Position numbers and translations under genes: made by a program. Under the pieces are notes generated by a model. It saw nothing but the letters and a program-made list of their open reading frames with translations, did no database searches and was not told the origin of the DNA. A stretch of DNA of 64,000 nt from an uncultured Clostridia bacterium. Lineage in GTDB: Bacteria; Bacillota; Clostridia; Christensenellales; Borkfalkiaceae. Numbering within the stretch: position 1 is the stretch's first letter; each line of letters opens with the position of its first letter. Below, piece after piece: positions 11,271-59,327 of this stretch. The stretch is from the NCBI GenBank assembly GCA_934254725.1, contig CAKQLR010000003.1, positions 18,754 through 82,753 on the forward strand, given 5' to 3'.

Positions 11271-12029
11271 ATGAAGGAACAGTATAAAGGATTTTTAAAC
11301 GGCAATATGCTGAAAATAGCCGCCGCCGTTTTTATGTTGGCGGATCATATCGGTGCGGTTTTCGGCCCCTCTTTGATAAGTGACGAATGCTGGGTGGTGC
11401 TCCGTTGCATCGGGCGCCTTTCCATGCCGATTTTCGCATTTTTGATTTCCGAAGGTTGCCGCTATACTCGCGACAGAAAAAAGTATTTTCTTTTTATGTT
11501 TCTGCTCGGCGCGGTATGCGACGCGGCGTTTTACATCGCAATGCAATCGGTTTACTTCTGCATACTGACAACCTTTTCCCTTTCCGTGCTTTTGATTTAT
11601 ACATACGACGAGTTTTTAAATCAGATTAAATCCGAAGAAAAAACTTTTAAAAAAATTACCGGCGCGGCATATGCGGCGGTAAAGTTTCTTCTGATAATAG
11701 CGTTATGCCTGTTTTTATTGGATTTGTGCGAAAGATACGACGGGGTATTCGATTACAGAATGCCCGGGATCATGCTACCCCTTTTGTGCTATATATTCAA
11801 AAACAGATGGCTTCGCCTTATTCTCTTCACTGCGGGCATAGCCTGGTCGGTATTCACGTATCCTTACGCCACGCAGATACCTTATTTTGCATTTCTTGCC
11901 GTGCCGATAGTAGCGCTTTACAACGGCGAACGAGGAAAACTTAACCTTAAATATTTTTTCTATTTGTTTTACCCCGTCCACCTTCTTCTGCTTGAGGGTA
12001 TCTATATGCTCATTATGCTTTTAAGGTGA
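11271..12029 (+). CDS. TraX family membrane protein
   Basis: 252 aa polytopic protein with LKIAAAVFMLADHIG and RLSMPIFAFLISEG motifs typical of TraX. Confidence 0.75.
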   Translation: MKEQYKGFLNGNMLKIAAAVFMLADHIGAVFGPSLISDECWVVLRCIGRLSMPIFAFLISEGCRYTRDRKKYFLFMFLLGAVCDAAFYIAMQSVYFCILTTFSLSVLLIYTYDEFLNQIKSEEKTFKKITGAAYAAVKFLLIIALCLFLLDLCERYDGVFDYRMPGIMLPLLCYIFKNRWLRLILFTAGIAWSVFTYPYATQIPYFAFLAVPIVALYNGERGKLNLKYFFYLFYPVHLLLLEGIYMLIMLLR

Positions 12030-12038
12030 CGAAATAAC

Positions 12039-13664
12039 ATGAACGCAAAACAGTTTTTCTCATACATAAGATATACGTTATTCCCGATAGCAGTTTACGG
12101 TATAGCCATAGGTCTTGCCACGGGAACGATAATATGGGGCTACTCCCTCGCCGCGGAATTCATAGGCGAACAGAGCGCAAACATCTATGCGTTTTTCAGG
12201 GCAAATCCGTCGTTTATCCCCTTGCTTTTTCTGGGGCTTCTGGCGCTTGCGCTTGTTTCTTACTTTGTAATAAAGTTCGTGCCGGAAGTAACGGGCAGCG
12301 GCGTTCCGTATTCGGAAGGCGTTATGCGCGGACTTTTGCCCTTGAGATGGGTGATAGTTCTCCCCGCCATGATAATCAACAGCTTTATTTCGTTTATCGC
12401 GGGCATTCCTCTCGGCAGCGAAGGGCCGAGCGTACTCATCGGTTCATGCATCGGCGCGGGTTCCAACGACGTAACCATCAACGGAAACAAACCCCGTCTT
12501 GCCTGGAAAAGACAGTCCATAACGGGCGGCGCTTCCGCGGCTTTCGCGGTGGCGTTCAACGCTCCCCTCGCAGGCATAATCTTCGCGCTCGAAGAAATAC
12601 ACAAACGTTTTTCCCCGATGATACTTTTGCCCGCTTCGGCTTCGGTAATAGTCGCCTCGATAACGGCTAACGGGCTTACCGCGCTTACGGGGCACGGCAT
12701 AAGCGAAGTTATCTTCACTGAGTTCGAAATGCTTGCCGAACCAACATTAAGGGAATTACCATTCCTCGCCCTCCTCGGCGTGATGATGGGCTTGTTTTCC
12801 GTTTTCTTCAGCCTGCTTTACAACGCGGTCGCGAGCGGAATGAATAAAATAAAAGTGCCAGTAATAGTAAAAATTATTTCGGCGTTTCTGCTTACCGGCG
12901 TAGCTGGCTTGCTCGTTGCGGATTCCATAGGCTCCGGCGGCAACCTGATAAGAAAAATAGCCCTTATGAAAACGGAGTGGAAGTTGCTTCTACTCATACT
13001 CGCTATAAAGCTCGTGCTAGTAACATTCTGTTCAAACGGCGGTGTGACGGGCGGCTTGTTCTTCCCCATTCTTGCGATAGGCGCGATATTCGGCGGGCTG
13101 ACCGCAAAGCTGTTTATCCTTATGGGAATGAGCGATAAATACTATAATATGATAGTGCTTATAAGCATGTGCGCGTTTTTGGGCGGAGTTATGCGCTCAC
13201 CCATAACCGCGGTGGTGCTTATAATAGAAATGACCGATACGCTTACGGCGGATCTTTGGGCAACCTGTTTTGTAATTCTGCTCGCTTATTTCATCATAGA
13301 ATTATTCAACGTAGAGCCGGTTTACGATAAACTTCTCGGCAACATTCTCGGCAAGCGCAACGCGGGCAAAAAGCGCAAGCTTGTAGTTTATGAAATAGAA
13401 ATAGAAGAAAATTCTTTTGCCGTGGGCAGAAGCGTGCGCGATATTCTCTGGCCGGCAAGCGCGCTCGTTATAAAGGTGAAAGAAACGGACGACCAGGGCA
13501 ACATAATCTACCGCATGGATAAGGACGGCGAACGCAAAATTCACGCAGGCGATAAGTTCGTTATTCAGGCGGAAACCGCAGAACCGAAAGAAATTTATAA
13601 ACAACTCTGCTATATAGTAAAACGCCCGGAATATTTCCACAATAATCCCGAGTTTAATGATTGA
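12039..13664 (+). CDS. ClC family voltage-gated chloride channel/antiporter with a C-terminal TrkA-C domain
   Basis: GSGVP, GSEGPSV and GGLFFP selectivity-filter-type motifs, followed by a soluble ~100 aa C-terminal domain. Confidence 0.85.
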   Translation: MNAKQFFSYIRYTLFPIAVYGIAIGLATGTIIWGYSLAAEFIGEQSANIYAFFRANPSFIPLLFLGLLALALVSYFVIKFVPEVTGSGVPYSEGVMRGLLPLRWVIVLPAMIINSFISFIAGIPLGSEGPSVLIGSCIGAGSNDVTINGNKPRLAWKRQSITGGASAAFAVAFNAPLAGIIFALEEIHKRFSPMILLPASASVIVASITANGLTALTGHGISEVIFTEFEMLAEPTLRELPFLALLGVMMGLFSVFFSLLYNAVASGMNKIKVPVIVKIISAFLLTGVAGLLVADSIGSGGNLIRKIALMKTEWKLLLLILAIKLVLVTFCSNGGVTGGLFFPILAIGAIFGGLTAKLFILMGMSDKYYNMIVLISMCAFLGGVMRSPITAVVLIIEMTDTLTADLWATCFVILLAYFIIELFNVEPVYDKLLGNILGKRNAGKKRKLVVYEIEIEENSFAVGRSVRDILWPASALVIKVKETDDQGNIIYRMDKDGERKIHAGDKFVIQAETAEPKEIYKQLCYIVKRPEYFHNNPEFND

Positions 13665-13720
13665 CAAAAGAAAAGTCCCGTTTTTCGCGCATTAACGCGC
13701 GTTCAGGGCAAGGAGCTACC

Positions 13721-15160
13721 ATGACTTTTTTAAAGAAAATCGAAAAGTTCTGCTCTACCGAAATGTTTATTTTGATAGTCGCTTTTCTGACTTATGTACT
13801 TCACGTCGTCGCGGCAGACATCGTAGGGATACTTCTCTACGGCGTGCTTGCGGGGGTGGGTTTCGTTCTTCTTAAAGACTTCCGCCCGTCGTTCACGTTT
13901 ATGGCTTCCGCTATATTTATAGTATCCATGCAAAACAGCCCCGGATACACGAACGGCAACAATTATTATACCACCCCGACGGTTCTTGCTCTTGCGGGCG
14001 TTGCGGTGTTCTTCGTTCTTGCGGGGCTTGCGTTCAGAACCGTACGTTACAGAAGCAACCTTAGAACGGGTAAGCTGTATGTTCCGTTCGCGCTCCTCGC
14101 CGTTTCGCTTTTACTTGCCGGCGTGGGTCAGGAATTCTATAAAGACAGCGTTACCCTTGCGGCTCTACTCACCGTGAGCGGCGTAGGGCTGTACTTCCTT
14201 TTCAGCGGAGCGTTCGATTGCTTTGACTGCATACTCGATTATATCACTTCTCTTTTCTCTATACTTGCCGTGCTTATAGCCGTGCAGATACTCACCGTTC
14301 CCGTCTATCGCATAATACAAGGAACGTTCGACAAAATGCTTGACAACTGGAAAGGCAACCTTATAATCGGCTGGGGAGTAAACAACCTTGCCGGGGAAAT
14401 GATTATATTCCTTATCCCGTTTATGTTCAGAAAGCTTCAGCAGGGCGATCATATAATCGTCTGGTCGGCAATGATAGTATTCTGTACGATGATGGTGTTC
14501 TTTACGTTCTGTCGTGCGGCGATGCTTTTCGGCTTCCCGATGATTTTTGCACTCGGGGTGTATACTCTTGTTAAAAATCCCGAAAGAAAGAAAATAGCCT
14601 TAACGGTGGGCATATTCTTCGGCGTTCTGGCTTTAGCGTTGCTTATAGTCTGCTTGTGCACCGACTTCAACACCATATTCAAATATTTCAAAACGGCTTT
14701 CAAAAAAGACGATAAATTCGCGTGGAGCAGCCGCGACGTTATATGGGCAAAACGTTGGAATTACTTCCTTGAAAAACCCTTCTTCGGTGTTGGTTTCGCA
14801 AGGGAATTCCACGATACGGGCAAAATCAACCAAGGGCACTCCATTTACATGTGGCTTGCGCATAATTTCGTTATGGAGATAGTCGGCGGCGCGGGGCTGC
14901 TCGGAATTATCTCCACGCTGTTCCTCTGCGTAAGCACTGCCATAAGACTTATAAAGAACAAGTTCGAAGGCAAACTGTTCTTGTGCGCCACCATTCTCGT
15001 CTACGCGTTGATTTCGCTGTTCGATACGGTCTACTTCAACTCCTACTGTCACATTTACATCATATTTGCGCTTGTAGTTGCGGAAAAGCTAATCGAACGC
15101 AAAAAGGCAGAAGATACTCAACCCTGCGACTGCGAGCAGGCGGAACAACCGAACGCATAA
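13721..15160 (+). CDS. O-antigen ligase (Wzy_C) family membrane protein
   Basis: Polytopic protein with the WLAHNFVMEIVGGAGLLG loop motif. The ORF track starts at a TTG at 13661; I prefer the ATG at 13721 (MTFLKK), which has AAGGAG 6 nt upstream. Confidence 0.7.
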   Translation: MTFLKKIEKFCSTEMFILIVAFLTYVLHVVAADIVGILLYGVLAGVGFVLLKDFRPSFTFMASAIFIVSMQNSPGYTNGNNYYTTPTVLALAGVAVFFVLAGLAFRTVRYRSNLRTGKLYVPFALLAVSLLLAGVGQEFYKDSVTLAALLTVSGVGLYFLFSGAFDCFDCILDYITSLFSILAVLIAVQILTVPVYRIIQGTFDKMLDNWKGNLIIGWGVNNLAGEMIIFLIPFMFRKLQQGDHIIVWSAMIVFCTMMVFFTFCRAAMLFGFPMIFALGVYTLVKNPERKKIALTVGIFFGVLALALLIVCLCTDFNTIFKYFKTAFKKDDKFAWSSRDVIWAKRWNYFLEKPFFGVGFAREFHDTGKINQGHSIYMWLAHNFVMEIVGGAGLLGIISTLFLCVSTAIRLIKNKFEGKLFLCATILVYALISLFDTVYFNSYCHIYIIFALVVAEKLIERKKAEDTQPCDCEQAEQPNA

Positions 15161-28541: not shown

Positions 28542-29243
28542 TCACATGGCTTTTCGCGTGTTTCGGGCTTCAACAGCCTCATAACATCCGTGATATTTGT
28601 TGTTTAACTTTATAAACAACCTCACAGCAAAGCGGAACGCGGTTACAAGCAACGCGTAATATACGGCAATTAAAATTGCGTTCAGTGACATATTTCGGAA
28701 TAAAAACAAAAACTCCGGTTTGATTATGTAGTATATAAATGTTATACCGCGCATTTCCATATCGTAGAACACCAAAGCCCAACTCAGCATGGCAAAAATC
28801 GTTACCCATATTTTTAGCCTGTCTGTTTTGTTTAATGCGTTCGTTCTGAATAAATGAATTCCCGCAACAAACAGAAACCCGTGACTAAAACAGCTGATTA
28901 AAACCTCTTTTAAGGTAAAACTGTTTGCGACCGTGAATCCGAATAAAGAATAAAACGTAAAATAACCCAAGCCTGCCATTATTCCGTAAAACGCGCCTAC
29001 GCCGTAAAGAGATTTTATTTTAAAGACCAAAATAACGCACATCAAAAAGTATGTTACGGAGCTTATTTCTACGGGGATAGCTAAATACCCCCTTACGTTC
29101 TGCATAACGTAATAAACAAGTTTGTACACAAACACCACTATGCTTAAAATCCTTAAAATAAGTTCGTTTCTCTTCGTTTTTTCGAGAAAATGACTTAATA
29201 AAAACATAACTGCAAAACTGCAAGCGCTTACTAAATTGAACAT
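28542..29243 (-). CDS. Integral membrane protein (YwaF/TIGR02206-like, uncertain)
   Basis: 233 aa with ~7 TM segments. The IPVEISS motif resembles the LPLxLC motif of that family. The assignment is weak. Confidence 0.5.
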   Translation of the reverse strand: MFNLVSACSFAVMFLLSHFLEKTKRNELILRILSIVVFVYKLVYYVMQNVRGYLAIPVEISSVTYFLMCVILVFKIKSLYGVGAFYGIMAGLGYFTFYSLFGFTVANSFTLKEVLISCFSHGFLFVAGIHLFRTNALNKTDRLKIWVTIFAMLSWALVFYDMEMRGITFIYYIIKPEFLFLFRNMSLNAILIAVYYALLVTAFRFAVRLFIKLNNKYHGCYEAVEARNTRKAM

Positions 29244-29422: not shown

Positions 29423-30124
29423 TTACATAAACCAGTTCCACACGTGCCAGGGTTCAAAAGAGCCTGCAGCAATACACATGGAAGCATACCCGATTATAAA
29501 TGCGGCTAAGAAGCAAACAAGCCCTATAATCGCAACTAATTTCAATTTGAATGCAGTCTTTTTGGAAATCGCGGGGTGCATGGAAATCGACGGATAAGCT
29601 CTGTCGTTTGCCGTATTTTTACACCATCTTACATAGACCTTTCCCCACTGTTTTGCGTACATAAACAAGTAAAACGTTCCGATTGCGGAAAGCACCGAAA
29701 GACCGATGCAGGCAATACCTAAAAGTAACGCAGGGAAATACGGGATATACGGAATAAGCTCTGCGATATTAACGGTTGTAATCAGGCAGCCGCCGGTAAC
29801 GAGACACGCGACTGAAAAACCGCCGAGCGCAATAACCGACGCCCATATCAACACATACACCATCGCAGCGGGAACAGACAAAAACACCAGACCGGTAACT
29901 TTAACGCCTTTCTTTAATTTATTTTCGGGTTCGGCTTTCGGCAAATATTCTTTTGCTATTTCCTTCGGCGAAGAAAGTTTCTTTACAATTTCTTCTTCCG
30001 TCAACCCCTCCTCGAGTTTAAATTCAAAATGACCTTCGAATTCCGAAATAATATCGTCTATTTCGTCAACATTGTTTAACTTAAGCTCTTTTCTTAATTC
30101 GTCAAGATATTCTTGCTTTGTCAT
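29423..30124 (-). CDS. DUF1700 domain membrane protein (PadR-associated)
   Basis: The N-terminus MTKQEYLDELRKELK...EEIVKKLSSPKEIAKEY is typical of DUF1700. The C-terminal part is multi-TM. It lies 1 nt downstream of padR. Confidence 0.75.
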   Translation of the reverse strand: MTKQEYLDELRKELKLNNVDEIDDIISEFEGHFEFKLEEGLTEEEIVKKLSSPKEIAKEYLPKAEPENKLKKGVKVTGLVFLSVPAAMVYVLIWASVIALGGFSVACLVTGGCLITTVNIAELIPYIPYFPALLLGIACIGLSVLSAIGTFYLFMYAKQWGKVYVRWCKNTANDRAYPSISMHPAISKKTAFKLKLVAIIGLVCFLAAFIIGYASMCIAAGSFEPWHVWNWFM

Positions 30125-30125
30125 A

Positions 30126-30440
30126 TTATTTTTCTCCTTGTATTATTTTATTTACGATTGCCGTAAAACTCAGCCACTCTGCCGAGTCGTTTTCGAATTC
30201 TTCTTTCCCGAGTTGCGTTAACGAATAATATTTTCTCGGCGGTCCGCCGCTGTCCTCGGATAAATACGTTTTAACAAGCCCGTCGGCTTTTAATTTTCTT
30301 AAAATCGGGTACACCGTGCCGTCCGATATATCTATCTGATTTGAAATATATTCGGAAAGTTCGTATCCGTACATATCCTTTTTACTGAGTATTGCCAGAA
30401 TACACAGTTCGATAACGCCTTTTTTATATTGAATATTCAC
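30126..30440 (-). CDS. PadR family transcriptional regulator
   Basis: 104 aa with LCILAIL...MYGYEL...GTVYPILRKLKADGLV, the PadR wHTH signature. It uses a GTG start with AAGGTGG upstream. Confidence 0.9.
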   Translation of the reverse strand: MNIQYKKGVIELCILAILSKKDMYGYELSEYISNQIDISDGTVYPILRKLKADGLVKTYLSEDSGGPPRKYYSLTQLGKEEFENDSAEWLSFTAIVNKIIQGEK

Positions 30441-30679: not shown

Positions 30680-32965
30680 TTATTTGAATTTTCTTGACTT
30701 TTTAAAACCGTAAACGGCAAAGCCCAGGAATACCAGACATACAAAAGACTGAGCGATTGCAATACTGCCCGAACAACCCGAAGAAGATTCCGAAGGTTTA
30801 TCACCAGTGCTGTTTCCGCCGCCCACGATATTCATTTCGACACTGCAATCGAAACCGCCGTATTCGAACTTAACCGTGCACGTACCCGAAGCAGTATTAT
30901 CGAACCCGCTGAAATACACGTCGTTATGAGCCAACGAAATTTCGCCTATTCTGCCGCTCTGGAAAGTCAGTTTTAAAGAACCGTCTCTCAAGTCGATAAT
31001 TTCGCCCACGTTGTATTCTGTTTTAGGGCTGTCTTTAATTTCGATGGCAAGCAGAACGTCCTGCAATACGTTGATCGTAAAATCGCATTCGCAACCTTCG
31101 TATTTTATCTTCAGGGTTTGTTCTCCTGCGTCGGTACTGTAATAGCCCTCGTAACTTACGGACTCGTCTCCCAAATCCACTATAACGAAATCTACGCTGT
31201 TACCTTTTGCCGTGCCCGCCTCAAACCAGGCTTTAAGCTTGCTACCGCTTAAATCCAGGCTTTCATAGCCCGTGTAATACTTTTTATCGGCAGTTTCGAT
31301 TACCTCGATCGCTCTTATATAATCGGAACACTCCAAATCCACATCACACGTGTATGTGTTGCCGTTCGCCCCAAAGGATAACTCAACCGTATTCTTACCT
31401 ATTTGCGAAAGCTTTTCGAGCGAAGTAACGCAATCGCTCATCGAAACGTACGTCAGAGAGTTGTCGGCAAATTCAACTTTTAATCTTCCGCCGCTGAGAT
31501 CCAATTTTTTATTATACAAAAACTTTTCCGCAGCGGGCATATCGGAAACGGAAACCTTGCTCACCTGAGCGGCTTCGCGTACGGTGATAGCGACGGGGAC
31601 GTCTTTTTTATTAAGATTACCGTCCGTGGCTGTTACCGTAACATTATAAGTACCAGTGCTGTCGGGGGTAAAAGAAATACCCGATTCGTTAAGCGATACG
31701 TCCGAACCGTCTTGTTTTTTAACGGTATACGATAAATCCGCGCCGTATCCGACCGCTCCCGATTTAGCCGTTACTACGGATAAATCCACAGGGAATCCCA
31801 CTACGCCGCTATTCAGCGTGTCGGGTACCGTAACCACGGGTTCGCCTTGATATTTATAGACGGAAGAAACTTTAAGCCCGGAAAGGTACGCGCCGCCGTC
31901 CGCCTTATCGTTGTCGCTGGCATCGGTAATACGAACATATATCACTTTTGAAGAGTCCAAAAACTTTGTAACATCTAAAGTATATATTTGTTTATCCGCA
32001 GACCTCGAACCGCAAAGTATATCCGTCCACAACGCCAAAGAAGTGTACGCGGCAGGTTCTTCGCTTGTAATCTTGTTGCCGGTAGAAACGGACAATCTGA
32101 AAGTTCCCCAGACGTCTGCTTTCAACAACAAATTAGAAAAAACGTAGTTATCGGTATCTTCTTCGGGGACGCTGAATTTGTATACTCCGTAGGGTGCATC
32201 TATCAAAGCGTAAGAGCAGTGCGACAAATTGTTGCCCACTTCGCCGTTGCTTATGTAGGTGTTATACATAACGCCCTTATAAGTGTCGGTAGTTTTTTCG
32301 CCGTAAATACGGTAAGCGTCGTCTTTTAAATCTTTGACGGTTGCGGCAAAACCCGTTTCTTTTTCAGTATAAACTTCAGGGAAAAATTCGCTTTCCGCTA
32401 CAGAACCGTCGTGGAAGAACCTAAGACGGTCTACAACCTGCAACGAACCGCCTATCTTCGGGTTGCTTCTCATTCTGAAAAACAGCCTGTCCGTTTCGGG
32501 TTTCCCGTTCAGATACTCCTCGGCAAAGACGTCGATGGTCGTATAAATGTGTTTAACGCCCGCCATCGGATCGAAAACTTTATAATTCTCAAAATCGTCG
32601 GTCGTGGAAATTAACATTACGCCGTCGCCGCTGAAAACGCCGTCTATATAAAAATGTTTTGTGTCTTTCGGGATATCCACGGCGTAGTCTATATAATTTT
32701 CTACGTTCCCGGTCTGTCCGCCTACCAAACGAATTTTAAACGTGGGGTTCGACATAATGGAAGAACCGAGTTCGTCATAGAAGTCCGCCCCTTCATAAAT
32801 CTGACAGTCGTAAAAACTTTTAACGGTCATATCTATAACGGTGCCCGTTTTAATTTCAGCCGCCGCGATTGTATTTCCGAAAAGAGAAAAAGCAGTTCCC
32901 GTTACCGCGGCGAACAACACCGCGGTAAGTAAACTTAAAATTATTTTTTTTAATGACTTAATCAT
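30680..32965 (-). CDS. Cell-surface protein: signal peptide, two N-terminal beta-sandwich modules, Ig-like repeats, and a Gly-Cys C-terminal anchor signal
   Basis: 761 aa. It has three ~85-aa repeats resembling bacterial Ig-like group 3 domains (Y..G..LDLSG..L...), each ending in C-D/S-V/F. The tail is SGCSGSIAIAQSFVCLVFLGFAVYGFKKSRKFK. Confidence 0.85.
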   Translation of the reverse strand: MIKSLKKIILSLLTAVLFAAVTGTAFSLFGNTIAAAEIKTGTVIDMTVKSFYDCQIYEGADFYDELGSSIMSNPTFKIRLVGGQTGNVENYIDYAVDIPKDTKHFYIDGVFSGDGVMLISTTDDFENYKVFDPMAGVKHIYTTIDVFAEEYLNGKPETDRLFFRMRSNPKIGGSLQVVDRLRFFHDGSVAESEFFPEVYTEKETGFAATVKDLKDDAYRIYGEKTTDTYKGVMYNTYISNGEVGNNLSHCSYALIDAPYGVYKFSVPEEDTDNYVFSNLLLKADVWGTFRLSVSTGNKITSEEPAAYTSLALWTDILCGSRSADKQIYTLDVTKFLDSSKVIYVRITDASDNDKADGGAYLSGLKVSSVYKYQGEPVVTVPDTLNSGVVGFPVDLSVVTAKSGAVGYGADLSYTVKKQDGSDVSLNESGISFTPDSTGTYNVTVTATDGNLNKKDVPVAITVREAAQVSKVSVSDMPAAEKFLYNKKLDLSGGRLKVEFADNSLTYVSMSDCVTSLEKLSQIGKNTVELSFGANGNTYTCDVDLECSDYIRAIEVIETADKKYYTGYESLDLSGSKLKAWFEAGTAKGNSVDFVIVDLGDESVSYEGYYSTDAGEQTLKIKYEGCECDFTINVLQDVLLAIEIKDSPKTEYNVGEIIDLRDGSLKLTFQSGRIGEISLAHNDVYFSGFDNTASGTCTVKFEYGGFDCSVEMNIVGGGNSTGDKPSESSSGCSGSIAIAQSFVCLVFLGFAVYGFKKSRKFK

Positions 32966-33007
32966 TAAAACAGCTCCTTAAAACTAATGATATTTGCCCT
33001 CGTAAAC

Positions 33008-34504
33008 TTAACGAGATTTTTTACGGAGCAACGTAGCCGAAAAACCTAAAACCATCAAAGCAGCCATAATGTTTACGGACATGATACTGCTTCCGCAACC
33101 GCCGTCTTCTTCATTGCCGGAGGGTTCAGTGCCGCTGCCAGTATCGCCGGTATTATCTCCGCTGTTACCGGAACTGCTGTCGTCGGGACCGGGAGCAGGT
33201 GTCTCTTCTTCTACGGTAATAGTGAGTTCTTCACTTGCAACGCCGTCGATTACAACTTTAATTTTGTAAGTTCCGGCTGCGGTATCGGTGCCTAAAGTAT
33301 ACGTTAATGCCGTATAATCTTCCACTACGGTATCGTTTACGTACCATACAACGGTAGCGGGAGTTGTGGTTGCGGGGGTGTGAGCCGCTGTAACGGTAAC
33401 AGCCGTACCTACGGTAACGGTAGTATTATCCGCGCTTAAAGATACAGCGGTGATTGTGGGATCTTCTTCTTCGTAATATCCCGTCAAAGACATGCCTATT
33501 ACCTGAGCACCGCCGCCGGAAACGCCCGTTGCGTCGGAAAATCTTACATATAAACCGCCGTTTTCGTTCAGATAGTCGGTTACGTCAATCGTGTATTCGG
33601 TTACTGCCGCGGTAAACGGGCACAAAACGAACTGCCAGTTTTCAACTCCGAAAGGATCCGGGGTGCCTTCACCGGTATAAATAGCAACGGCTGCGTCGCA
33701 CGCGAAAACAAGCTTTAATTTAGCGCCTGCGAAACCATTTTCCATATCCAACGTATTAACGCCGTCGAATTTATAGGTCAGAACGCCGCCGTGTACCTTA
33801 CCGCTGCGCGAAGCGTCGATGGGGAAGCCGCCGTCCGCATAACGAACGCCGCTCTCGAGCTGTCCGCCGACGGACATATTGCTTACAAAAAATTCTGAAT
33901 CGAAATTGCTGTTTTCGCTATCCACGCTGAATCCGACGGTATCCGTCGTATAGTAACTCGGGAAGGTTTCCCCTGCAGTAAGAATAGTTCCGTTGTGTGC
34001 AAAGTTAACGTAATCGCGCAGTTTGAAAGATTTATTGTCCGCCGAACCGGTAACTTTAATATACACGGTACCCGTGTGCTGAACGCCTTCGAGCAAGTTC
34101 GAAGTATCCGCTATCTGTAAATCCTGATCTACGCTCCATTTTTTAGAATAGCTTTCGCCGTCGGTAGAAACGGATAAAGCAACGGTATTAAAACAGCTTG
34201 ATATTTTCAATATCGTAGTATCTTCGGGAAGAAGAATTTTCCAGACTATGTAACTGTCCTCACCATTTTTTCGACCGAATCTCGTTTCGCTGTTTCCTCC
34301 GCCGTAATCGGTCAAACCGGTTTCTACATTCTCGTAAGCGTCGGTCATATTTACCTGGTCTACAACGTAAAACGCGTTTTCTCTCATATCGATTTCGGGT
34401 TTGGAGGGTGTTGCCGCCTCATCTGCAGAAACCGAAGTAACGCCGCAGAGAGCAGTTACTGCCATCGCAAAAGCGATCAATAAAGTAAGTAATTTTTTCT
34501 TCAT
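33008..34504 (-). CDS. Cell-surface protein, paralogous N-terminal modules, Ig-like domain, and a Gly-Cys C-terminal anchor signal
   Basis: 498 aa with a signal peptide (AMAVTALCGVTSVSA). YVRFSDATGVSGGGAQVIGMSL matches YVRITDASDNDKADGGAYLSGLKV in the 761-aa protein. The tail is GGCGSSIMSVNIMAALMVLGFSATLLRKKSR. Confidence 0.85.
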   Translation of the reverse strand: MKKKLLTLLIAFAMAVTALCGVTSVSADEAATPSKPEIDMRENAFYVVDQVNMTDAYENVETGLTDYGGGNSETRFGRKNGEDSYIVWKILLPEDTTILKISSCFNTVALSVSTDGESYSKKWSVDQDLQIADTSNLLEGVQHTGTVYIKVTGSADNKSFKLRDYVNFAHNGTILTAGETFPSYYTTDTVGFSVDSENSNFDSEFFVSNMSVGGQLESGVRYADGGFPIDASRSGKVHGGVLTYKFDGVNTLDMENGFAGAKLKLVFACDAAVAIYTGEGTPDPFGVENWQFVLCPFTAAVTEYTIDVTDYLNENGGLYVRFSDATGVSGGGAQVIGMSLTGYYEEEDPTITAVSLSADNTTVTVGTAVTVTAAHTPATTTPATVVWYVNDTVVEDYTALTYTLGTDTAAGTYKIKVVIDGVASEELTITVEEETPAPGPDDSSSGNSGDNTGDTGSGTEPSGNEEDGGCGSSIMSVNIMAALMVLGFSATLLRKKSR

Positions 34505-34586: not shown

Positions 34587-36257
34587 TCAGCCTTTTAAAG
34601 AAACGTTTACGTGCGGAACGTTTTCGCGTATCAGTTGGAAAAACTGTTCTGCCGTTACGATCTCTACGTCGTCGTCCAGATTTTGATACATTTCCACGGC
34701 GTCGCTGTAATCTCTGCTCCACGGATGAAGATTTACGAGAGTGTAACCTTCTATTGAACGGGGATTAACGGGGAAATTGTTGATTTTTTCCGCAATGGAA
34801 GCGCCCGTTTCGGGCTCCCACAAAGAAAGCCTGCAGGTTACGAACGGCATACCGTTCTCCGACCAATAGACGGAACCTTTTTCCGCTGCATAATAATCGC
34901 CTATCATACACTGAACGCCAAGCAATCCGGGAACACGCGAATAGTATTCGACAACGTCCTCCGTTACGCACGTATCGAGGATTTGCAGCGTCGTTAAGTC
35001 TCCGCGTTTCAAATAAGTTGCAAGTCTGCCGCAAAAATCGGACAGGTCGGGATACACCGAAGGATTTATATAACCTTGACCGGAAACGGCAGCCACGAGG
35101 TAATCGCCCGCGGAACCTATCTGGTTGTAAATATATCTTTGTAAAGCGGGCTGTATATCTATCGCCGAGGGCGAAATATTCCATCCCATCGGGAAATCCG
35201 CGCGTTCGGCGGCAAAATATTTTTTACTTGCATCGGGAGACAACGTATTGGAAAGCGCCTGTATATTATCCCCGTCGGAACATACGATGCACACGTAATG
35301 CTTGTTTTCTACTTCTTTGCGCTCGTATTGAACCATTTGTTTTAACTGTTTTACGCCGAAAAACTCGGTACAGCTAAAAACGGAAAGGTTTGCGCTCCAG
35401 TCGGAGGCGATAGTAAAATTGCCGTTCATAGAACTCACGTTTACGTGCGAAGTTTCGTCTATCGGGCCCCAACCGAAAACAGGGCTGTCGGTCTTCGTCC
35501 ATTCGTGCACTTCGCCGCGGAGTTGCAACGCTTCCAAAGTTTCTTTGCTTTGATAAAAACTGTAGTATTTGCAGGCGATCGCGTAATCGCACATCATCTC
35601 CACGCCTCCGGCAAGCTGACACAGACCGGAATTGTTTAATTTGTCCTTATAATTTTCGAAACACCATCTGTCGTTTTTATCGGTAACGTCAAGTTTTTTC
35701 GTCAATCCCAAATCTATATACTTTTGCTCTACGGACGCGTCTACAGGGATCCACCCCTCTACTCCGCATATTGTTACGGCCACGTTTTTGGACTCGCCGT
35801 TTTGCGAACGGTTATATAGAATATAGCCTGCGTTTTCGCCGAAACGCGTTTTGTAGTCCTCTACCATCTGCGCTATCGTTACGTTCTCGGTCGTTAAGCC
35901 GTATTCTTTGCAAATTTCGTTAAGCCACATCGAATGATGATAGCTTCCCGAGCAATAATATTCTGCCGCGGTCTGAGCAAAAAGCCCCTGAATCGCAGCT
36001 CCCGCAAGGATATCGCTGCCGCTCAAACCTCTTTCCACGTTGTAACCGAAAACTTTTAAATGACGGTTTTCGTTCATTTTAAAACTTTCGAAATACGTAA
36101 AATCGTCATCTGCGAGGTTAAGTTCATAAGGATCCTGCTCGGCAGGTTCGGTTGAGTCGGATGGTCCCGAAGAGTCGTTTTCTTTGCACGCGACCATTCC
36201 GAAAAGCAAGCAAAGGATCAGCAAAAAGGGAAATATTTTTATAAGCTTTTCTTTCAT
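34587..36257 (-). CDS. GxGYxYP family lipoprotein (putative glycoside hydrolase of an uncharacterised family)
   Basis: It contains the family-naming motif SGQGYINPSVYP and the lipobox LLFGMVAC. I trimmed the ORF (..36281) to MKEKLIK at 36257 to avoid overlap with the upstream gene. Confidence 0.75.
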   Translation of the reverse strand: MKEKLIKIFPFLLILCLLFGMVACKENDSSGPSDSTEPAEQDPYELNLADDDFTYFESFKMNENRHLKVFGYNVERGLSGSDILAGAAIQGLFAQTAAEYYCSGSYHHSMWLNEICKEYGLTTENVTIAQMVEDYKTRFGENAGYILYNRSQNGESKNVAVTICGVEGWIPVDASVEQKYIDLGLTKKLDVTDKNDRWCFENYKDKLNNSGLCQLAGGVEMMCDYAIACKYYSFYQSKETLEALQLRGEVHEWTKTDSPVFGWGPIDETSHVNVSSMNGNFTIASDWSANLSVFSCTEFFGVKQLKQMVQYERKEVENKHYVCIVCSDGDNIQALSNTLSPDASKKYFAAERADFPMGWNISPSAIDIQPALQRYIYNQIGSAGDYLVAAVSGQGYINPSVYPDLSDFCGRLATYLKRGDLTTLQILDTCVTEDVVEYYSRVPGLLGVQCMIGDYYAAEKGSVYWSENGMPFVTCRLSLWEPETGASIAEKINNFPVNPRSIEGYTLVNLHPWSRDYSDAVEMYQNLDDDVEIVTAEQFFQLIRENVPHVNVSLKG

Positions 36258-36261
36258 ATAA

Positions 36262-37914
36262 TCAGTTCTCCGTACAATCAACGTCTACCTGAGGTACGTT
36301 TGCGCGAATCATTTTAAAGAAATTATCCGCAGTTACGACGATTGTATTTTCATCGAGATTTTTAACGAGTTCCACAACGTCTGTGTACGACGTAGACCAG
36401 GGATGCACGTTGATTACGCTGTATCCGTTAATGGAAGTCGGATCCTTTTCGCACACATTTACCTGCGCGGCGATATTAGCGCCCGTCGTTTCCCAAAGAG
36501 AGAAGCGGCACGTAACGAACGGCATTCCGTTTTTCCAATAAACCGAACCGTGTTTAGCGGCATATTTCCAACCGGACATAACCGCGCAACCGTACAGACC
36601 TTCGATTTTTGAATAATATTCGAAAGCGTCGACGTCGATGGCTTCTTCCAAAATCTGCAAACTGTGGCAATCCGCCCTCTTAAGATAGTTACCGAGACGC
36701 TCCGTGAACAGCTTGAGCGCTTCCTGCGGGTAAGACGACGGATACATATAACCCGCACCCGAAACCGAAGCTACGAAATAATCATTCTCATCCATATTGC
36801 GATAGAGATAATTCATAATGCTCGGCTGCAAATCGACACAACTTACGTTAAGCGTCCAACCCATTTTGAAATTTTCTCTGTCTGCAAGATAATAAGCCGC
36901 GCTGAACGGGAAAGTATTGGAAACCGCCTGTATGTTATCTCCGTCGCTCATCATAATGCAAACGTAATGTTTGCCTTTTTGCGCAGTTACTTCTTTATGT
37001 AGGCTTTTCTGCGTGAAGGAAGTCCCCCACGCATCCGAACATAAAACGGTCATGTTGGCGCTCGTGTCCGAAGCGACGGTAAACTCTGCGTTATTCGACG
37101 CGATGGTTACGTCCTGACCTTCGGTGGTGGGTCCCCAACCGAATATAGGCGAATCGTCATCCGTCCAGCTCTGCACTCTGTTTCTGAAAGCAAGCGTCGA
37201 AATATCCGTATCTACCTGATAAAATCCGTAATATTTCCCGGCTATCCAATAATCGCGCGGGTACCATAAATCGGGCGAAAGCTGAAAGAGCGCGTCCGTA
37301 GCGAACTTATCTTTATAATCGTAATAACAGTCGGATTCCGTCATTTCGGTTACGTCCATAAGTTTTTCCATGTTGTAACCTTTTTTGCTGGAAAACTGCC
37401 TTTCCTGAGTAGTGTCCACGGGGATTGCGTTAAAAATACCCGCAAGGCTTGTCGCCACGTTTACGGATTCGGGGTTCTTAGCTTTATCGTACAAAATGTA
37501 TTTGGCGTCCGCGCCGAATTTTTCTTTATACGCGTTAACCATCGAATCGAACGTAACGGTTTCGGTGGTAACCCCGTACGTATCTTTCAGATCCTGCAAC
37601 CAAAGTTCGTTTGCGGAAAAAGTTAAATTATAATAAGTGATCTCGTCCCTGTTGAACAATCCCTGTATGGCGATAGCGGTAAACGCCTGAGCAAAATTGT
37701 CGTCCTCCCCCTTCCACACGAGCAATTTATTATCGCCGTTCATTTTAAAATTTTTGTAATAATCGTACTCTACGGTTGTCGGAGTTTCACCCGAAGATGA
37801 GTCGTCGGACGGTTTGTCCGATTGATCTCCGTTATTTTGTCCGCAACCTGCAAAACACGCAAAAACAAGCATTATCGCAAGAAAAAATGTAAAAAACTTC
37901 TTCATCTTTTTCAT
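36262..37914 (-). CDS. GxGYxYP family lipoprotein (paralog)
   Basis: SGAGYMYPSSYP motif and lipobox FACFAGC. Long shared blocks with the downstream paralog include HYVCIMMSDGDNIQAVSNT and GMPFVTCRFSLWE. Confidence 0.75.
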   Translation of the reverse strand: MKKMKKFFTFFLAIMLVFACFAGCGQNNGDQSDKPSDDSSSGETPTTVEYDYYKNFKMNGDNKLLVWKGEDDNFAQAFTAIAIQGLFNRDEITYYNLTFSANELWLQDLKDTYGVTTETVTFDSMVNAYKEKFGADAKYILYDKAKNPESVNVATSLAGIFNAIPVDTTQERQFSSKKGYNMEKLMDVTEMTESDCYYDYKDKFATDALFQLSPDLWYPRDYWIAGKYYGFYQVDTDISTLAFRNRVQSWTDDDSPIFGWGPTTEGQDVTIASNNAEFTVASDTSANMTVLCSDAWGTSFTQKSLHKEVTAQKGKHYVCIMMSDGDNIQAVSNTFPFSAAYYLADRENFKMGWTLNVSCVDLQPSIMNYLYRNMDENDYFVASVSGAGYMYPSSYPQEALKLFTERLGNYLKRADCHSLQILEEAIDVDAFEYYSKIEGLYGCAVMSGWKYAAKHGSVYWKNGMPFVTCRFSLWETTGANIAAQVNVCEKDPTSINGYSVINVHPWSTSYTDVVELVKNLDENTIVVTADNFFKMIRANVPQVDVDCTEN

Positions 37915-37936
37915 ATAAATCTACACCTTATCTTTT

Positions 37937-38812
37937 TTATTTAATTCCGGAAATACTCATGGACGCCAGGAAATATTTCTGGCATACAAAATACGTAGCG
38001 ACCACGGGAACCGTAATGGATATAAGAGCCGCCGCGCGAAGATAAGAGTCTCCGCTGCCCTCGAACTGAGGATAAAAGCTCATAAGTTTCAACTGAATTA
38101 CAAATTTGGACGGGTCGTGCGTAACAATCAACGGCCAAAGATACTCGTTCCATTTAGCGGTAAAGGTCATAATGCAAAACGTAAGTATGACCGAACGGCA
38201 CATGGGAAAAGCAATCTGGAAAATTTTTCTCAACTCGCCCGCGCCGTCTATATCTGCGGCTTCGAGGCACGCGTCCGGTATCTGATGCATAAACTGACGG
38301 AACATAAACACGCCGAATACGTTGATAAATCCGGGAAGAAATACGCCCGTCAATGTCTCGGTAACGCCCAAGCCGTCAACGATGATATAAATCGGAATGA
38401 GCAATACTTCGCCCGGGACCATCATCGAAGCCAATATAAGCCAGAACCAGACGTCCCTTCCTTTAAATCTCAGTTTGCCGAAGCAATAGCCGAGAACAAA
38501 CGCAAACACCAGACTTACGACGAGACTTACGACAACTACAACTATACTGTTGAAAAAGCCTTGCCATAAATCGCCTACTCTGAAAGCTTCCGCGTAGTTG
38601 GAAAAATGAATGCCGCCTTGCGGCCACCAATAAATCTTTCCGGGTTTTCCTATAAAATCGAGCGAAGTCAGCGACGACGCCAACTGCAACCAATACGGAA
38701 AAACCAGCAAAAAGCCCATAAACGCCATAAATAAGACGCAAAAAGTAACGACAAGCGCGTTAACGACCTTTTTTCTCTTACTTACAAGAGGTTTCAATTC
38801 GGTATTATTCAT
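37937..38812 (-). CDS. Carbohydrate ABC transporter permease (CUT1 family, MalG-like)
   Basis: 6-TM protein with the EAA loop EAADIDGAGELRKIFQIAFP. Confidence 0.9.
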   Translation of the reverse strand: MNNTELKPLVSKRKKVVNALVVTFCVLFMAFMGFLLVFPYWLQLASSLTSLDFIGKPGKIYWWPQGGIHFSNYAEAFRVGDLWQGFFNSIVVVVVSLVVSLVFAFVLGYCFGKLRFKGRDVWFWLILASMMVPGEVLLIPIYIIVDGLGVTETLTGVFLPGFINVFGVFMFRQFMHQIPDACLEAADIDGAGELRKIFQIAFPMCRSVILTFCIMTFTAKWNEYLWPLIVTHDPSKFVIQLKLMSFYPQFEGSGDSYLRAAALISITVPVVATYFVCQKYFLASMSISGIK

Positions 38813-39728
38813 ACGAAACCTCCTTATTGTTGAGCTTCATCTGTATGACAGAAAATATCATGACTACTAAAAACAATACCATGGCATAAGCGCTCGCCAC
38901 GCCCATTTTGGAGCGCTCGAAGGCAAGATAGTAAACGTACAGCACCGAAGACTGCGTTTTGCTTCCGCCGCTGGTAATAAGTTGCATGGGACCTATTACC
39001 TTAAAGCCGTTGATTATAGAATTGACAAGATTTAACGTAATGGTATTTGAAATCAAAGGGAGCGTAATGTAAATATACGCCTTTAATTTGCTGTCCGTTT
39101 CGAGGCTTGCGGCTTCAAGGTAAGTATCGGGTACGCCGATAATAGCCGCATAATAAATAAGCAACCCGCCGCTGAACCCTAAAAATACGGACGTAAACAT
39201 TAAAGCAAAAAGCGCATATTTTTCTTCGTTAAAATAGTTTATCGGGTTATCCAACGCGCCTATCGACATAAGCAGCGAATTAACTATGCCCGATTCGCTG
39301 CCGTCGAAAAGCAACTGAATAATGTTGCTCCCGACAACTGCTGAAACAAGTGCCGGCCAATACAGCACGGCAAGAAAAATCTTTTTACCGCGGGGTATTC
39401 TGGTAAGCATAAAGCCGAGTAACAACCCGAAAAAATTGCTCCCTATAGTGGTAAAAAACGCCCACTTGACGGATACCCAGAGCGACGACCAGAATTCGGC
39501 GTCGTACAGTTCGTGGTTTTTATCGAAAATTCTTATGTAATTATCAAAAGTAAAGCGAGTAATGTTGGCAACGCTCGTCTTCATATTCGTAAAGCTTATA
39601 ACTATAGCGAATATGAAGGCGGCGGCAAAAAACACAAGCCAGAAAATCAAGGGTATCGCCATCAGGGAATACGCCTTTATTTCATTGCGATATTTAAATT
39701 TGACAGAATTATTTTTTTTATTAGTCAC
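38805..39728 (-). CDS. Carbohydrate ABC transporter permease (CUT1 family, MalF-like)
   Basis: EAA loop EAASLETDSKLKAYIYITLP. The ORF track starts at a TTG at 39761, inside the SBP gene. I prefer the GTG at 39728, immediately after the SBP stop. The start is uncertain. Confidence 0.85.
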   Translation of the reverse strand: MTNKKNNSVKFKYRNEIKAYSLMAIPLIFWLVFFAAAFIFAIVISFTNMKTSVANITRFTFDNYIRIFDKNHELYDAEFWSSLWVSVKWAFFTTIGSNFFGLLLGFMLTRIPRGKKIFLAVLYWPALVSAVVGSNIIQLLFDGSESGIVNSLLMSIGALDNPINYFNEEKYALFALMFTSVFLGFSGGLLIYYAAIIGVPDTYLEAASLETDSKLKAYIYITLPLISNTITLNLVNSIINGFKVIGPMQLITSGGSKTQSSVLYVYYLAFERSKMGVASAYAMVLFLVVMIFSVIQMKLNNKEVSYE

Positions 39729-39729
39729 T

Positions 39730-41127
39730 TTAAGAATACAACTCCTTGAGATCTTTGGCAAGAGTCGTCTGAATTTTATCCAAGGTCTTAGCTTCCCCGT
39801 TCTTGAGCCATGCGGTCATAAGTCCGCTAAGCTCTTTCTGCGTCTGGCTCCATATGCCCGTTCCGGGACGAACCACCGCTTTTTCCAACGACGCGCCGAA
39901 CATCTGCCAGCTTTCGCTGTTATAATAATCGCTTTCCGCAAACGCCGCTTTTAAAGCGGGCATCTGATAAGAACCCTCTGCATACGCAAGCATGGAAGTC
40001 TGATCTTTTATCAAATATTTCATAAAGTCCAAAGCCAAAGCCTTGTTTTTGCTGCGACGGCTCATAGCCAAAGAATAAAGCCCCGCGCAGGATTTCGCTT
40101 CGTAACCGTCTTTAAGCGTTATAAGGTCCGCCCACCCCGCATTAAATATGCTTTCTACGGTAGGATCTTTACCGAGCTGATCATACTTTGCAATTTTCCA
40201 GCAACCTTCTTCGATAAATAAAACTTTACCTTCTTCGAACTTTGCTTCTTCAAACGTAGAAGATACAACACCGGTAGCGCCGAGTTGTTTTACTATCGTC
40301 TCAAGCTCTGCATTTGCAGCCTTGTCTGCAGGATATTCGTCGTTGCAAATAGTAACTTTGGAGAAATCGTCGTTCATAACAGAACCGCCGAGTCTTGCAA
40401 GCATGGAAACGTACTGCATAGAAGCAACGGACGCGTATTCGTTACCGGAAGGAATTGTCCACGCGCCTATCTGCTTTCCTGTCGTTCTGTTGTAATCGTT
40501 AACCTGTTTGCACCACCACAACATGGAATATTCTTCCTGCTCGCTGCCTAATTTTGTGGGAACACAGGCGTCGATATCGGTATATTGAATTCCGTTAGTG
40601 TCCAGAACGTTTTTCATCAGAACACGGTTATAAGCCAAACCGAACGTATTTGCCGCATAAGGAAGCGCATAAACGTCGCCGCCGTAATATCCCGTGTTAT
40701 ATAAAGAGGAATACAACGTATCTTTTACTTCGCTTAACAATTCGGGAGCAATACTGCTGAGGTCTGCAAGTGCCGGATCTCCGAAATAATAAGCAAGTAC
40801 CTGAATGTACACGCTATCCAACAATAATAAGTCGGGTTCGTTCTTTTTGCCGACCACCATAGCGTAGCTGGTGTAAAAATTATCGGCAGGCTGCGGCGTT
40901 AAGTTGATGGTAACGCCTTCGTGCTCTTGTTCGTAAGCTTTCTTGGCTTGCTTAGCGGCTTCGAACTGTGCGTCCGCGCCCGGCCACCATACGGTAATAG
41001 ACCCGCTTAACGGAGCGTCGGGGTTAACACTGTCGCCGCTGTTGTCCGATCCGCCGCATGCGCAGAAGGCGCATGCGAGCACTGCTATGAGTACACCTGT
41101 CACAAATTTTTTCAAAAATCCAGACAT
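39730..41127 (-). CDS. ABC transporter extracellular solute-binding lipoprotein (family 1)
   Basis: 465 aa with a lipobox (LACAFCACG). It is the first gene of the operon, with GGAG 9 nt upstream of the ATG. Confidence 0.85.
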   Translation of the reverse strand: MSGFLKKFVTGVLIAVLACAFCACGGSDNSGDSVNPDAPLSGSITVWWPGADAQFEAAKQAKKAYEQEHEGVTINLTPQPADNFYTSYAMVVGKKNEPDLLLLDSVYIQVLAYYFGDPALADLSSIAPELLSEVKDTLYSSLYNTGYYGGDVYALPYAANTFGLAYNRVLMKNVLDTNGIQYTDIDACVPTKLGSEQEEYSMLWWCKQVNDYNRTTGKQIGAWTIPSGNEYASVASMQYVSMLARLGGSVMNDDFSKVTICNDEYPADKAANAELETIVKQLGATGVVSSTFEEAKFEEGKVLFIEEGCWKIAKYDQLGKDPTVESIFNAGWADLITLKDGYEAKSCAGLYSLAMSRRSKNKALALDFMKYLIKDQTSMLAYAEGSYQMPALKAAFAESDYYNSESWQMFGASLEKAVVRPGTGIWSQTQKELSGLMTAWLKNGEAKTLDKIQTTLAKDLKELYS

Positions 41128-51504: not shown

Positions 51505-51637
51505 ACTTTTATAAACGAAGGATTCCCGGATATCAAAAAACGCTTCTTTCCTTAAAAAGAAAAAAAGTTGAAATTTTCAGCAAAAAAATACATGATTGAA
51601 GTTTCGGGAATATCATAAAATAGACAAGGGAGGTTTT

Positions 51638-53047: not shown

Positions 53048-53069
53048 AATATTATCGGAGGAAAAAACG

Positions 53070-54527: not shown

Positions 54528-54541
54528 ATCCGTAAGTACAA

Positions 54542-55501: not shown

Positions 55502-55544
55502 AAAAATAAAACAGGCACCGCCTGAATAAAAAAGGAGAAAAAAG

Positions 55545-58316: not shown

Positions 58317-58366
58317 TCAGGTAAAATTATTATCGGTAAACAAACAATTAAACGAAATTTGTTTAA

Positions 58367-58388
58367 GGGGAGGAGAACTCTCCTCCCC
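58367..58388 (+). other. Very stable intra-operon hairpin
   Basis: GGGGAGGAG-AACT-CTCCTCCCC, a perfect 9-bp G/C-rich stem, 51 nt after the surface-protein stop and 17 nt before the permease ATG. There is no adjacent U-tract. Confidence 0.7.
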
Positions 58389-58404
58389 GAAACAAGAGGT
58401 TTTT

Positions 58405-59259: not shown

Positions 59260-59327
59260 ATTAAAAAGTAATATAAATTCGGAAAAAACAGGATAAACTC
59301 CTTTTAAAATAAAACCGGAGGGGAAAA

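Follow-up and report, generated by a model that had tools for sequence, protein, structure and literature searches.

A 64,000-nucleotide stretch of contig CAKQLR010000003.1 (hereafter the window), from an uncultured Clostridia bacterium of the order Christensenellales, encodes four large secreted proteins that share one C-terminal architecture, which we term the GC-type tail: a Gly-Cys motif, a hydrophobic helix and a cluster of basic residues. A preliminary description of this DNA had proposed these tails as an uncharacterised protein-sorting signal. Our analysis makes it very probable that the GC-type tail is a real, conserved and portable C-terminal signal dedicated to sorting or anchoring. 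The best overall explanation, toward which we lean, is a new family of Cys-containing tripartite sorting signals, probably acting through lipidation of the Cys and removal of the helix by a membrane protease. The tail probably marks a way of fixing proteins to the cell surface that is still unknown.

Open reading frame (ORF) calling across the window recovered the proteins of 761, 498, 923 and 406 residues as they had been described, and translation returned the four quoted tails exactly. At locus A, the 761-aa protein ends in SGC-SGS, a hydrophobic helix and KKSRKFK (30680-30781, minus strand; SGCSGSIAIAQSFVCLVFLGFAVYGFKKSRKFK) and the 498-aa protein in GGC-GSS, a helix and RKKSR (33008-33103, minus strand; GGCGSSIMSVNIMAALMVLGFSATLLRKKSR). 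At locus B, the 923-aa protein ends in GGC-FSG, a helix and RKKQDR (58221-58316, plus strand; GGCFSGIGVTLFAGIFAIAFAGAKLRKKQDR) and the 406-aa protein in KGC-KGS, a helix and KKKRK (61929-62018, plus strand; KGCKGSLLSPVSLGAVVLLSCATLKKKRK); each tail runs up to the stop codon. Against the tail profile introduced below, they score 44.9, 52.8, 44.2 and 31.7 bits, respectively. Common to all four is a Ser/Gly/Asp/Thr-rich linker followed by G-C-x-[GS]-[SG], about 20 hydrophobic residues and a Lys/Arg cluster. A six-frame scan of the 64 kb showed that, among real genes of 100 aa or more, these four alone have a hydrophobic stretch plus a basic cluster at the C terminus; the Gly-Cys motif is thus present in every helix-plus-basic protein of the window (4/4), far beyond coincidence, as the preliminary description had argued. 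Each of the four proteins starts with an ordinary type I Sec signal peptide. None carries an N-terminal lipobox ([LVI][ASTVI][GAS]C), the conserved Cys lying instead at the C-terminal end, just before the helix. Inspection of the translations also bore out the reported lack of LPXTG, since no LPXTG-like motif lies near any of the four C termini.

The Gly-Cys motif is conserved among homologues. In a search of 5.8 billion proteins, the 923-aa protein had 22 homologous clusters with 33-99% identity, in all of which a Cys lies 24-33 residues from the end, preceded by Gly in 21 of the 22. In the family alignment, the motif positions are kept as G in 20/21, C in 21/21, G in 16/21 and S in 16/21 sequences. 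The folded part stops about 57 columns ahead of the Cys, and these linker columns are indel-rich and mostly sparsely occupied. The same search returned just two homologous clusters for the 498-aa protein, one of them distant. This distant homologue (P0002, 55% identity) retains GGCKGAL, the helix and RRAK, and its syntenic locus encodes two surface proteins, ending in EGGCKGAL...RRAK and SGGCGGAL...RKKR. When 26 tails from two protein families were compared, the Cys was the sole invariant column and the Gly before it was kept in 25; the Cys was likewise the sole invariant column in an alignment of 23 tails. The tail similarity thus partly reflects shared ancestry, but conservation is concentrated on Gly-Cys, which appears to be under purifying selection.

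A profile search showed that the tail is a portable module. The profile, comprising 40 positions and built from 23 tails, was searched against 1.84 billion cluster representatives with a library-wide threshold of E<=1e-3. It matched 480 cluster representatives, the best at an E-value of 1.3e-10. The match lies at the extreme C terminus in each of the best 150 of the 480, a position that the profile does not demand. In 140 of 142 new matches, [GS]-C is found 20-36 residues from the end, with the motif GCGS in 80, GCGG in 33, GCKS in 8 and GCKG in 5; none of the 142 has LPXTG or a variant (xPxT[GAN]) before the helix. A Sec signal peptide, another feature that the profile does not model, starts 45 of the 54 matches of at least 280 aa. 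The passengers are diverse: the 53 long carriers scanned contain 28 Pfam families, among them GH3, CBM9, CBM26, Big_2, Flg_new, Endonuclease_1, F5/8 type C, hyaluronate-lyase N-beta and rhamnosidase, to which the window adds Big_3. The proposal of an uncharacterised tripartite signal is therefore upheld by the profile, which retrieves hundreds of C-terminal tails on unrelated secreted proteins. Several features expected in general of a tripartite signal are present, namely a signature, a helix and a basic cluster at the extreme C terminus, a signal peptide at the N terminus, many otherwise unrelated carriers and several carriers per genome. Four carriers lie within the 64 kb of the window, and two each occur in the loci L001 and L090. 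The enrichment in this genome rests on these four genes together with the metagenome-wide profile result.

The consensus of 163 Cys-aligned tails reads E-E-[KE]-[KGS]-G-C-G-[SG]-[SVA]-[IV] and follows a stalk rich in Pro, Thr, Glu, Ser and Asp. From the Cys to the first basic pair there are 19-26 residues, including a helix of about 20 hydrophobic residues rich in Ala, Gly and Val. [AG]-[AG]-A is conserved 5-7 residues ahead of the first basic pair, and the C terminus is K-K-K-[KE]-[ED]-[DN]. The helix differs sharply in composition from ordinary transmembrane (TM)-like windows in the same genomes, with 41% versus 18% Ala plus Gly and 24% versus 42% Leu plus Ile plus Phe (p ~1e-64). In a subfamily of 14 members, the tails are 70% identical, whereas the 60 residues upstream are 12% identical.

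We controlled the specificity of the profile with 6233 stop-to-stop ORFs from 1.27 Mb of DNA. True tails scored 25-53 bits and the best non-tail match 13.8 bits, and plain C-terminal anchors consisting of a TM segment and basic residues gave no match. One divergent true tail, on a 748-aa protein of L001, reached only 10.9 bits, within the range of noise. The profile also missed a two-Cys tail in a Christensenellales metagenome-assembled genome (MAG; UMGS775, locus L011), where a 521-aa ORF ending at 1643 on the plus strand terminates with GGCGCSGS, a helix and KKKKEDRT. Because of these two cases, the profile undercounts, and the tail family is broader than the 480 matches. The preliminary description had also called for a comparison with existing sorting-domain models. 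The four full proteins and 41 isolated tails were scanned against NCBIfam release 20 and Pfam, and no model covers the Gly-Cys motif at its curated cutoff; full-text literature searches yielded no description of such a tail.

All carriers with source names are annotated as hypothetical proteins. They come from Christensenellaceae, Clostridiales or Clostridia MAGs, apart from one labelled Candidatus Enteromonas sp., a genus that corresponds to GTDB UBA733 in the order RFN20 (PMC8035907). Two carriers lie on contigs of 30% GC from an unplaced group, compared with 45.5% GC for the window, and the tail is therefore not confined to one lineage. Among nine independent loci around tail genes, the carrier lies beside or inside glycan loci with a solute-binding protein and permeases in six. 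In two (L093 and L094), it lies beside glycoside-hydrolase genes with no adjacent ABC transporter. Some of these loci hold further carriers, such as a GDSL esterase in L090. The genomes of L093 and L094 also encode surface enzymes with plain anchors, a 5'-nucleotidase (L093, 7759-9663, minus strand) and a GH3 enzyme (L094, 9222-12338, plus strand), whose TM segments are rich in Leu, Ile, Val and Phe and lack the motif, indicating that two kinds of C-terminal anchor coexist. The ninth locus, L097, is uninformative because its contig measures 1.4 kb and has 1.5x coverage. It contains P0063 (323-532), a 69-aa ORF in which an N-terminal lipoprotein signal (…FTFTSC) is joined to a GC tail by a 20-residue Pro/Thr linker. 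On such a contig we drew no conclusion from this ORF, which may be a natural "double-anchored" mini-protein or a remnant.

The first step of the pathway that we propose can be read from the sequences: the carriers are exported by Sec through their N-terminal signal peptides, and the C-terminal helix acts as a stop-transfer segment that leaves the Lys/Arg cluster on the cytoplasmic side. This topology puts the invariant Cys on the external side of the membrane, where a long flexible stalk begins. By analogy with MYXO-CTERM and its protease MrtX, and with other Cys-containing signals, the Cys thiol would then be modified, most likely by S-lipidation, and the Ala/Gly-rich helix would be removed by a polytopic endopeptidase of the membrane, dedicated to this task and encoded at another site in the genome. 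For this protease, a CPBP/Rce1-type enzyme ranks ahead of a rhomboid as a candidate. The pathway would yield a surface protein tethered by its C terminus. The near-invariant small residues at the Cys, the Ala/Gly-rich helix and the 70% versus 12% identity in the subfamily argue for recognition by a membrane-embedded enzyme. The specific route of Cys lipidation followed by cleavage with a CPBP-type protease is a tentative proposal, drawn from that analogy. Because the tagged proteins bind glycans and their genes are co-oriented with ABC sugar-importer genes, and in locus B interleaved among them, the tag could keep at the cell surface those proteins of Gram-positive polysaccharide-utilisation loci that form the glycan-capture layer. 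More speculatively, the tail might represent a third display route of Gram-positive bacteria besides sortase and N-terminal lipoproteins, in which a "reverse lipobox" (G-C-G-S-[IV]) would direct C-terminal lipid anchoring by S-lipidation of the Cys on the outside of the cytoplasmic membrane and subsequent cleavage by a dedicated intramembrane protease in monoderm gut Firmicutes. On this equally speculative proposal, the route would occur in Christensenellales, other uncultured Clostridia and the low-GC Bacillota group, which would use it mainly for glycan-capture proteins.

We looked for a sorting enzyme near the tail genes. Precomputed Pfam assignments for every gene in the window, together with our own scans, revealed no sortase, exosortase, rhomboid (rhombosortase) or CPBP gene, in agreement with the preliminary description. 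Crude motif scans of 1.06 Mb of related DNA gave no sortase-like ORF (TLxTC) and one CPBP-like ORF (L056), a sample too small for either result to carry weight. A polytopic membrane protein of 233 aa (28542-29243, minus strand) is encoded downstream of locus A, after a PadR/HAAS regulator pair (30126-30440 and 29423-30124). Its position is conserved in all samples of this species, and it matches no Pfam or NCBIfam family. We dropped it as a candidate enzyme because the neighbourhood is not conserved at the locus of the 55% homologue.

Several observations weigh against a lipidated and cleaved sorting signal. We infer cleavage and lipidation by analogy. The consensus and the helix composition are partly circular, as they were drawn from profile-selected tails. 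In an unbiased sample of 916 kb around mnmA from 80 related species, just one variant tail was seen. Within 10 kb of the tail genes, none of the nine loci has a gene for a CPBP protein, rhomboid, sortase, exosortase or Lgt, although the absence of a linked enzyme is uninformative because housekeeping enzymes that sort many substrates are usually unlinked to them. The known Cys-type signals come from diderm bacteria, where they are coupled to type II secretion (T2SS), or from archaea, whereas we presume from Bacillota taxonomy that this lineage is monoderm. Finally, the likeness to MYXO-CTERM and Synerg-CTERM that the preliminary description had pointed out applies to the Gly-Cys signature; the helix and the basic part are closer to the LPXTG/NPXTG anchors of Firmicutes.

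The last of these observations could be taken to mean that the tail is a highly divergent sortase signal, in which GC(G/S) replaces LPXTG and the chain is cut at or beside G-C-G and linked to peptidoglycan. The hosts are Bacillota, the motif occupies the position of LPXTG, and the LPXTG_anchor model TIGR01167 was the most frequent partial match, weakly recognising 14/23 tails, with 8 of 20 individually scored tails above its cutoff (16.5-19.7 versus 15.9 bits). Pfam Gram_pos_anchor (PF00746) weakly matched 15 of the 23, and Rumino_NPXTG (NF033846), again matching just the helix and basic part, scored 21.9 bits, under its cutoff of 23.5. However, of the 34 positions of TIGR01167 the matches span only 9-34, which correspond to the helix and basic tail and in no case include LPXTG, and the full-length window proteins gave no match to this model. 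The Pro-x-Thr element is missing from all 142 new tails and the four window proteins, while every sortase motif class known to us keeps Thr (or Ala) ahead of the scissile bond. Sortases do not rely on an invariant Cys for recognition, and a sortase gene was found neither in the window and examined neighbourhoods nor by the crude scan. We thus regard a sortase signal as quite improbable. The opposite view, that there is no signal and that paralogues inherited one C-terminal module with Gly-Cys as a neutral relic, starts from the detectable homology of the last ~110 residues of the 498-, 923- and 406-aa proteins (BLASTP 1e-7 to 6e-5) and from the N-terminal domain shared by the two locus A proteins (BLASTP 1e-10, residues 5-379 of the 761-aa protein). 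It is effectively refuted by the invariance of the Cys down to 33% overall identity while linker and helix diverge freely, by the occurrence of the same tail on unrelated architectures in genomes of 30% and 45% GC, and by library-wide E-values down to 1e-10 for a profile of 40 positions.

A different possibility, which we consider unlikely, is that the tail is a permanent, uncleaved single-pass anchor, with Gly-Cys serving for reversible S-acylation, for a thioether or disulfide link to a partner or wall polymer, or for metal-mediated or covalent oligomerisation of the glycan-binding proteins. Taken by itself, the sequence displays just a stop-transfer helix with a positive-inside cluster, which together with the lack of a processing enzyme near the nine loci and the plain TM anchors of the 5'-nucleotidase and the GH3 enzyme would fit such an anchor. 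Those plain anchors, however, are rich in Leu, Ile and Phe and lack the motif, whereas the GC tails share with cleavable sorting helices a high content of Ala and Gly. The near-invariant G-C-G-[SG], together with helix residues that are kept across unrelated passengers, looks like an enzyme recognition site, and a disulfide would be unlikely on the surface of a strict gut anaerobe. A Cys-containing tripartite sorting signal accordingly remains the explanation that we favour.

The four tail proteins of the window are surface glycan-binding proteins of lectin-like and Ig-like type. The 761-aa protein (30680-32965, minus strand) starts with the N-terminal domain that it shares with the 498-aa protein, followed by PKD/Ig-like and Big_3 repeats (Pfam Big_3, 1.6e-13), a linker and the GC tail. 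The 498-aa protein (33008-34504, minus strand) has an unannotated N-terminal domain, an Ig-like domain, a Ser/Gly/Asp/Thr linker at about 33104-33196 and the tail, and it matched no Pfam family. Among strains of the species (compared in L002-L005), the linkers at 33104-33196 and 30782-30830 differ by short indels, such as an extra GSDNT in the 498-aa protein and GEDKP replacing GDKP in the 761-aa protein. The tails of these strains are identical apart from a single I/V change. The stalk evolves by repeat slippage. In locus B, the 923-aa protein (55545-58316, plus strand) is built of tandem LamG/ConA-like beta-sandwiches and an FN3-like domain, followed by a linker at about 58167-58220 and the tail. 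The beta-sandwich fold given in the preliminary description held for this protein, as its AF2 model, computed from a 21-sequence alignment (pLDDT 85.5), is an essentially all-beta chain of beta-sandwiches. Foldseek matched this model to LamG/ConA-like lectin folds (laminin LG, botulinum BoNT Hc and Bacteroides BT3469), and the linker and tail (residues 875-923) have pLDDT values below 50. The 406-aa protein (60798-62018, plus strand) combines a 3-keto-disaccharide-hydrolase-like (DUF1080/LamG) domain, an FN3-like domain and the tail. Its Pfam match to 3keto-disac_hyd (3.4e-5) was under the cutoff, and its FN3-like region resembles that of the 923-aa protein (3.8e-9).

The rest of locus A (34587-41127, minus strand) lies directly upstream of the 498-aa and 761-aa genes in the same direction and comprises, by Pfam, a solute-binding lipoprotein, two ABC permeases and two GxGYxYP putative glycoside hydrolases. 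The rest of locus B (51596-60779, plus strand) encodes a 483-aa protein, a solute-binding lipoprotein, a permease, then after the 923-aa gene another permease and a lipoprotein-like protein of 483 aa. The 923-aa gene (55545-58316) thus sits between the two ABC permease genes (54542-55501 and 58405-59259), an order kept in other samples of the species (L086 and L087). In this way, a surface lectin-like protein is tied unusually closely to an importer operon. The two 483-aa proteins (51596-53047 and 59328-60779, plus strand), the second of which has a lipoprotein-like N terminus (…LAFCGC), belong to no Pfam or NCBIfam family and are probably uncharacterised glycan-active or glycan-binding components. 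A ROK regulator (62120-63301; ORF calling and precomputed Pfam) follows locus B. Just beyond the right end of the window, locus B extends in L086 (17768-21751) past this regulator to genes for one DUF4838 and one SASA (sialate O-acetylesterase-like) protein, which hints at a host-glycan or sialoglycan substrate. Elsewhere in the window (11271-15160, plus strand), a CLC channel gene lies between genes for membrane proteins of the TraX family (PF05857) and of Wzy_C/O-antigen-ligase-like type (PF04932); this cluster is about 15 kb from locus A, and we noticed no connection with the tails.

The mnmA gene lies 2.5 kb from locus A. Its product shares 95% identity with MnmA of a "Christensenellaceae bacterium" MAG and 76-87% with MnmA of about 80 other Clostridia/Christensenellaceae MAGs from human and ruminant guts. 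Contigs of 240-257 kb from human gut metagenomes, Hadza samples among them, carry identical loci. A scan of the GTDB species-representative genomes gave no relatives of the locus A protein family, the locus being absent there or unassembled. In the human gut microbiota, the Christensenellales rank with the most heritable and health-associated groups, and hardly any of them has been cultured. The GC tail points to an unannotated display system in this important gut group. Once defined, the signal would allow the surface proteome to be predicted for hundreds of species known only from MAGs and would mark the glycan-binding components of ABC-type polysaccharide-utilisation loci. It would also avoid LPXTG mis-annotation: automated annotation could mislabel GC-tail proteins as sortase substrates, since in some tails the helix and basic region suffice to exceed the TIGR01167 cutoff. 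The tail further offers a test of whether the pairing of Cys signals with CPBP enzymes, found in diderms and archaea, extends to bacteria without an outer membrane, which would open the very large prokaryotic CPBP family to direct functional tests in Firmicutes. If cleavage and lipidation prove true, the tail could be put to use as a tag for displaying proteins on the surface of gut anaerobes.

Of the known systems, MYXO-CTERM shares the most in layout with the GC tail. Both are tripartite, lie at the extreme C terminus and have a short Gly-rich signature with an invariant Cys directly ahead of a TM helix that ends in a basic cluster. TIGR03382 aligns from its position 1 onto the G-C of the tails, and the GGCGC variant of L011 recalls the double-Cys form of MYXO-CTERM. 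Both signals are borne by many unrelated surface proteins and have no enzyme encoded beside the substrates. MrtX, a protease of the CPBP/Rce1 family, has been shown by experiment to cleave MYXO-CTERM in a Cys-dependent manner (PMC11980579), lipidation of the Cys has been proposed (PMC11980579; 10.1101/2023.06.07.544157), and each of the four known Cys-containing signals has a CPBP partner enzyme (bioRxiv 10.1101/2023.06.07.544157). Nevertheless, the best scores among the 41 tails were below the MYXO-CTERM cutoffs (14.4 versus 15.85 for TIGR03382 and 15.9 versus 20 for TIGR03901), and the full-length window proteins gave no match. Where MYXO-CTERM has an Arg-rich basic cluster, the GC tail has a Lys-rich one with acidic residues after it (KKKED). 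Its hosts belong to the Bacillota (Christensenellales and others) rather than to the Myxococcota, the window has no CPBP gene, and no outer-membrane or T2SS step is expected.

In words, the closest description of the GC motif is that of Synerg-CTERM (processed by MrtS), in which a Ser/Gly-rich cluster ends in a single invariant Cys beside the helix (10.1101/2023.06.07.544157). Only one of the 41 tails matched its model (TIGR04564), at 14.2 bits against a cutoff of 22.5. The GC tail differs in having two or three small residues (G-S-x) between the Cys and the helix and typically E-E-K-K before GC, and its hosts are Bacillota, whereas Synerg-CTERM is restricted to Synergistales and linked to T2SS. 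GlyGly-CTERM resembles the GC tail in that a small-residue motif abuts the start of a Gly-rich helix, and its known product, made by rhombosortase, is a surface protein with a C-terminal lipid link. One of the 41 tails, that of a homologue, passed TIGR03501 (16.6 versus 15.5 bits). GlyGly-CTERM, however, is proteobacterial and T2SS-coupled and lacks the invariant Cys, and the window has no rhomboid gene. JDVT-CTERM, CGP-CTERM and Firmicu-CTERM gave no match at E<=10 or E<=1 with the 41 tails and four proteins, a result in which HMMER filters may have dropped very weak matches. A weak match to NCBIfam "lipo-invert" (NF058595, E=0.022) in the 761-aa protein is irrelevant, as it covers residues 437-462 in an Ig-like strand, outside the tail. 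Haft's survey of Cys-containing sorting signals does not mention Firmicutes.

The LPXTG/NPXTG signals share with the GC tail the phylum (Firmicutes), the position after a long wall-spanning stalk rich in Pro, Thr and Glu, and a very similar Ala/Gly-rich helix with an ending of Lys/Arg and then acidic residues, but in the GC tail G-C-G-S stands in place of the pentapeptide. There is also a parallel to the lipobox recognised by Lgt and Lsp. In both, an invariant Cys lies among small residues at the outer membrane face, beside a hydrophobic helix (cleavable in the lipobox), and the polar, charged neighbours of the Cys belong to the mature side. Going outward from the helix, [IV]-[SVA]-[SG]-G-C of the GC tail mirrors [LF]-[VAT]-[AG]-C of the lineage's own lipoproteins. 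The polarity is reversed, with the helix C-terminal to the Cys and the signal at the C terminus, and the likeness is weak (Gly is beside the Cys on the mature side in 12 of 30 of these lipoproteins), so we keep it as an idea only. Judged by the cutoffs of the models tested and by the host and enzyme associations of the known signals, the GC tail appears to fall outside every described family. The GC module combines a Cys-type signature with a helix and tail like those of Firmicutes sortase substrates.

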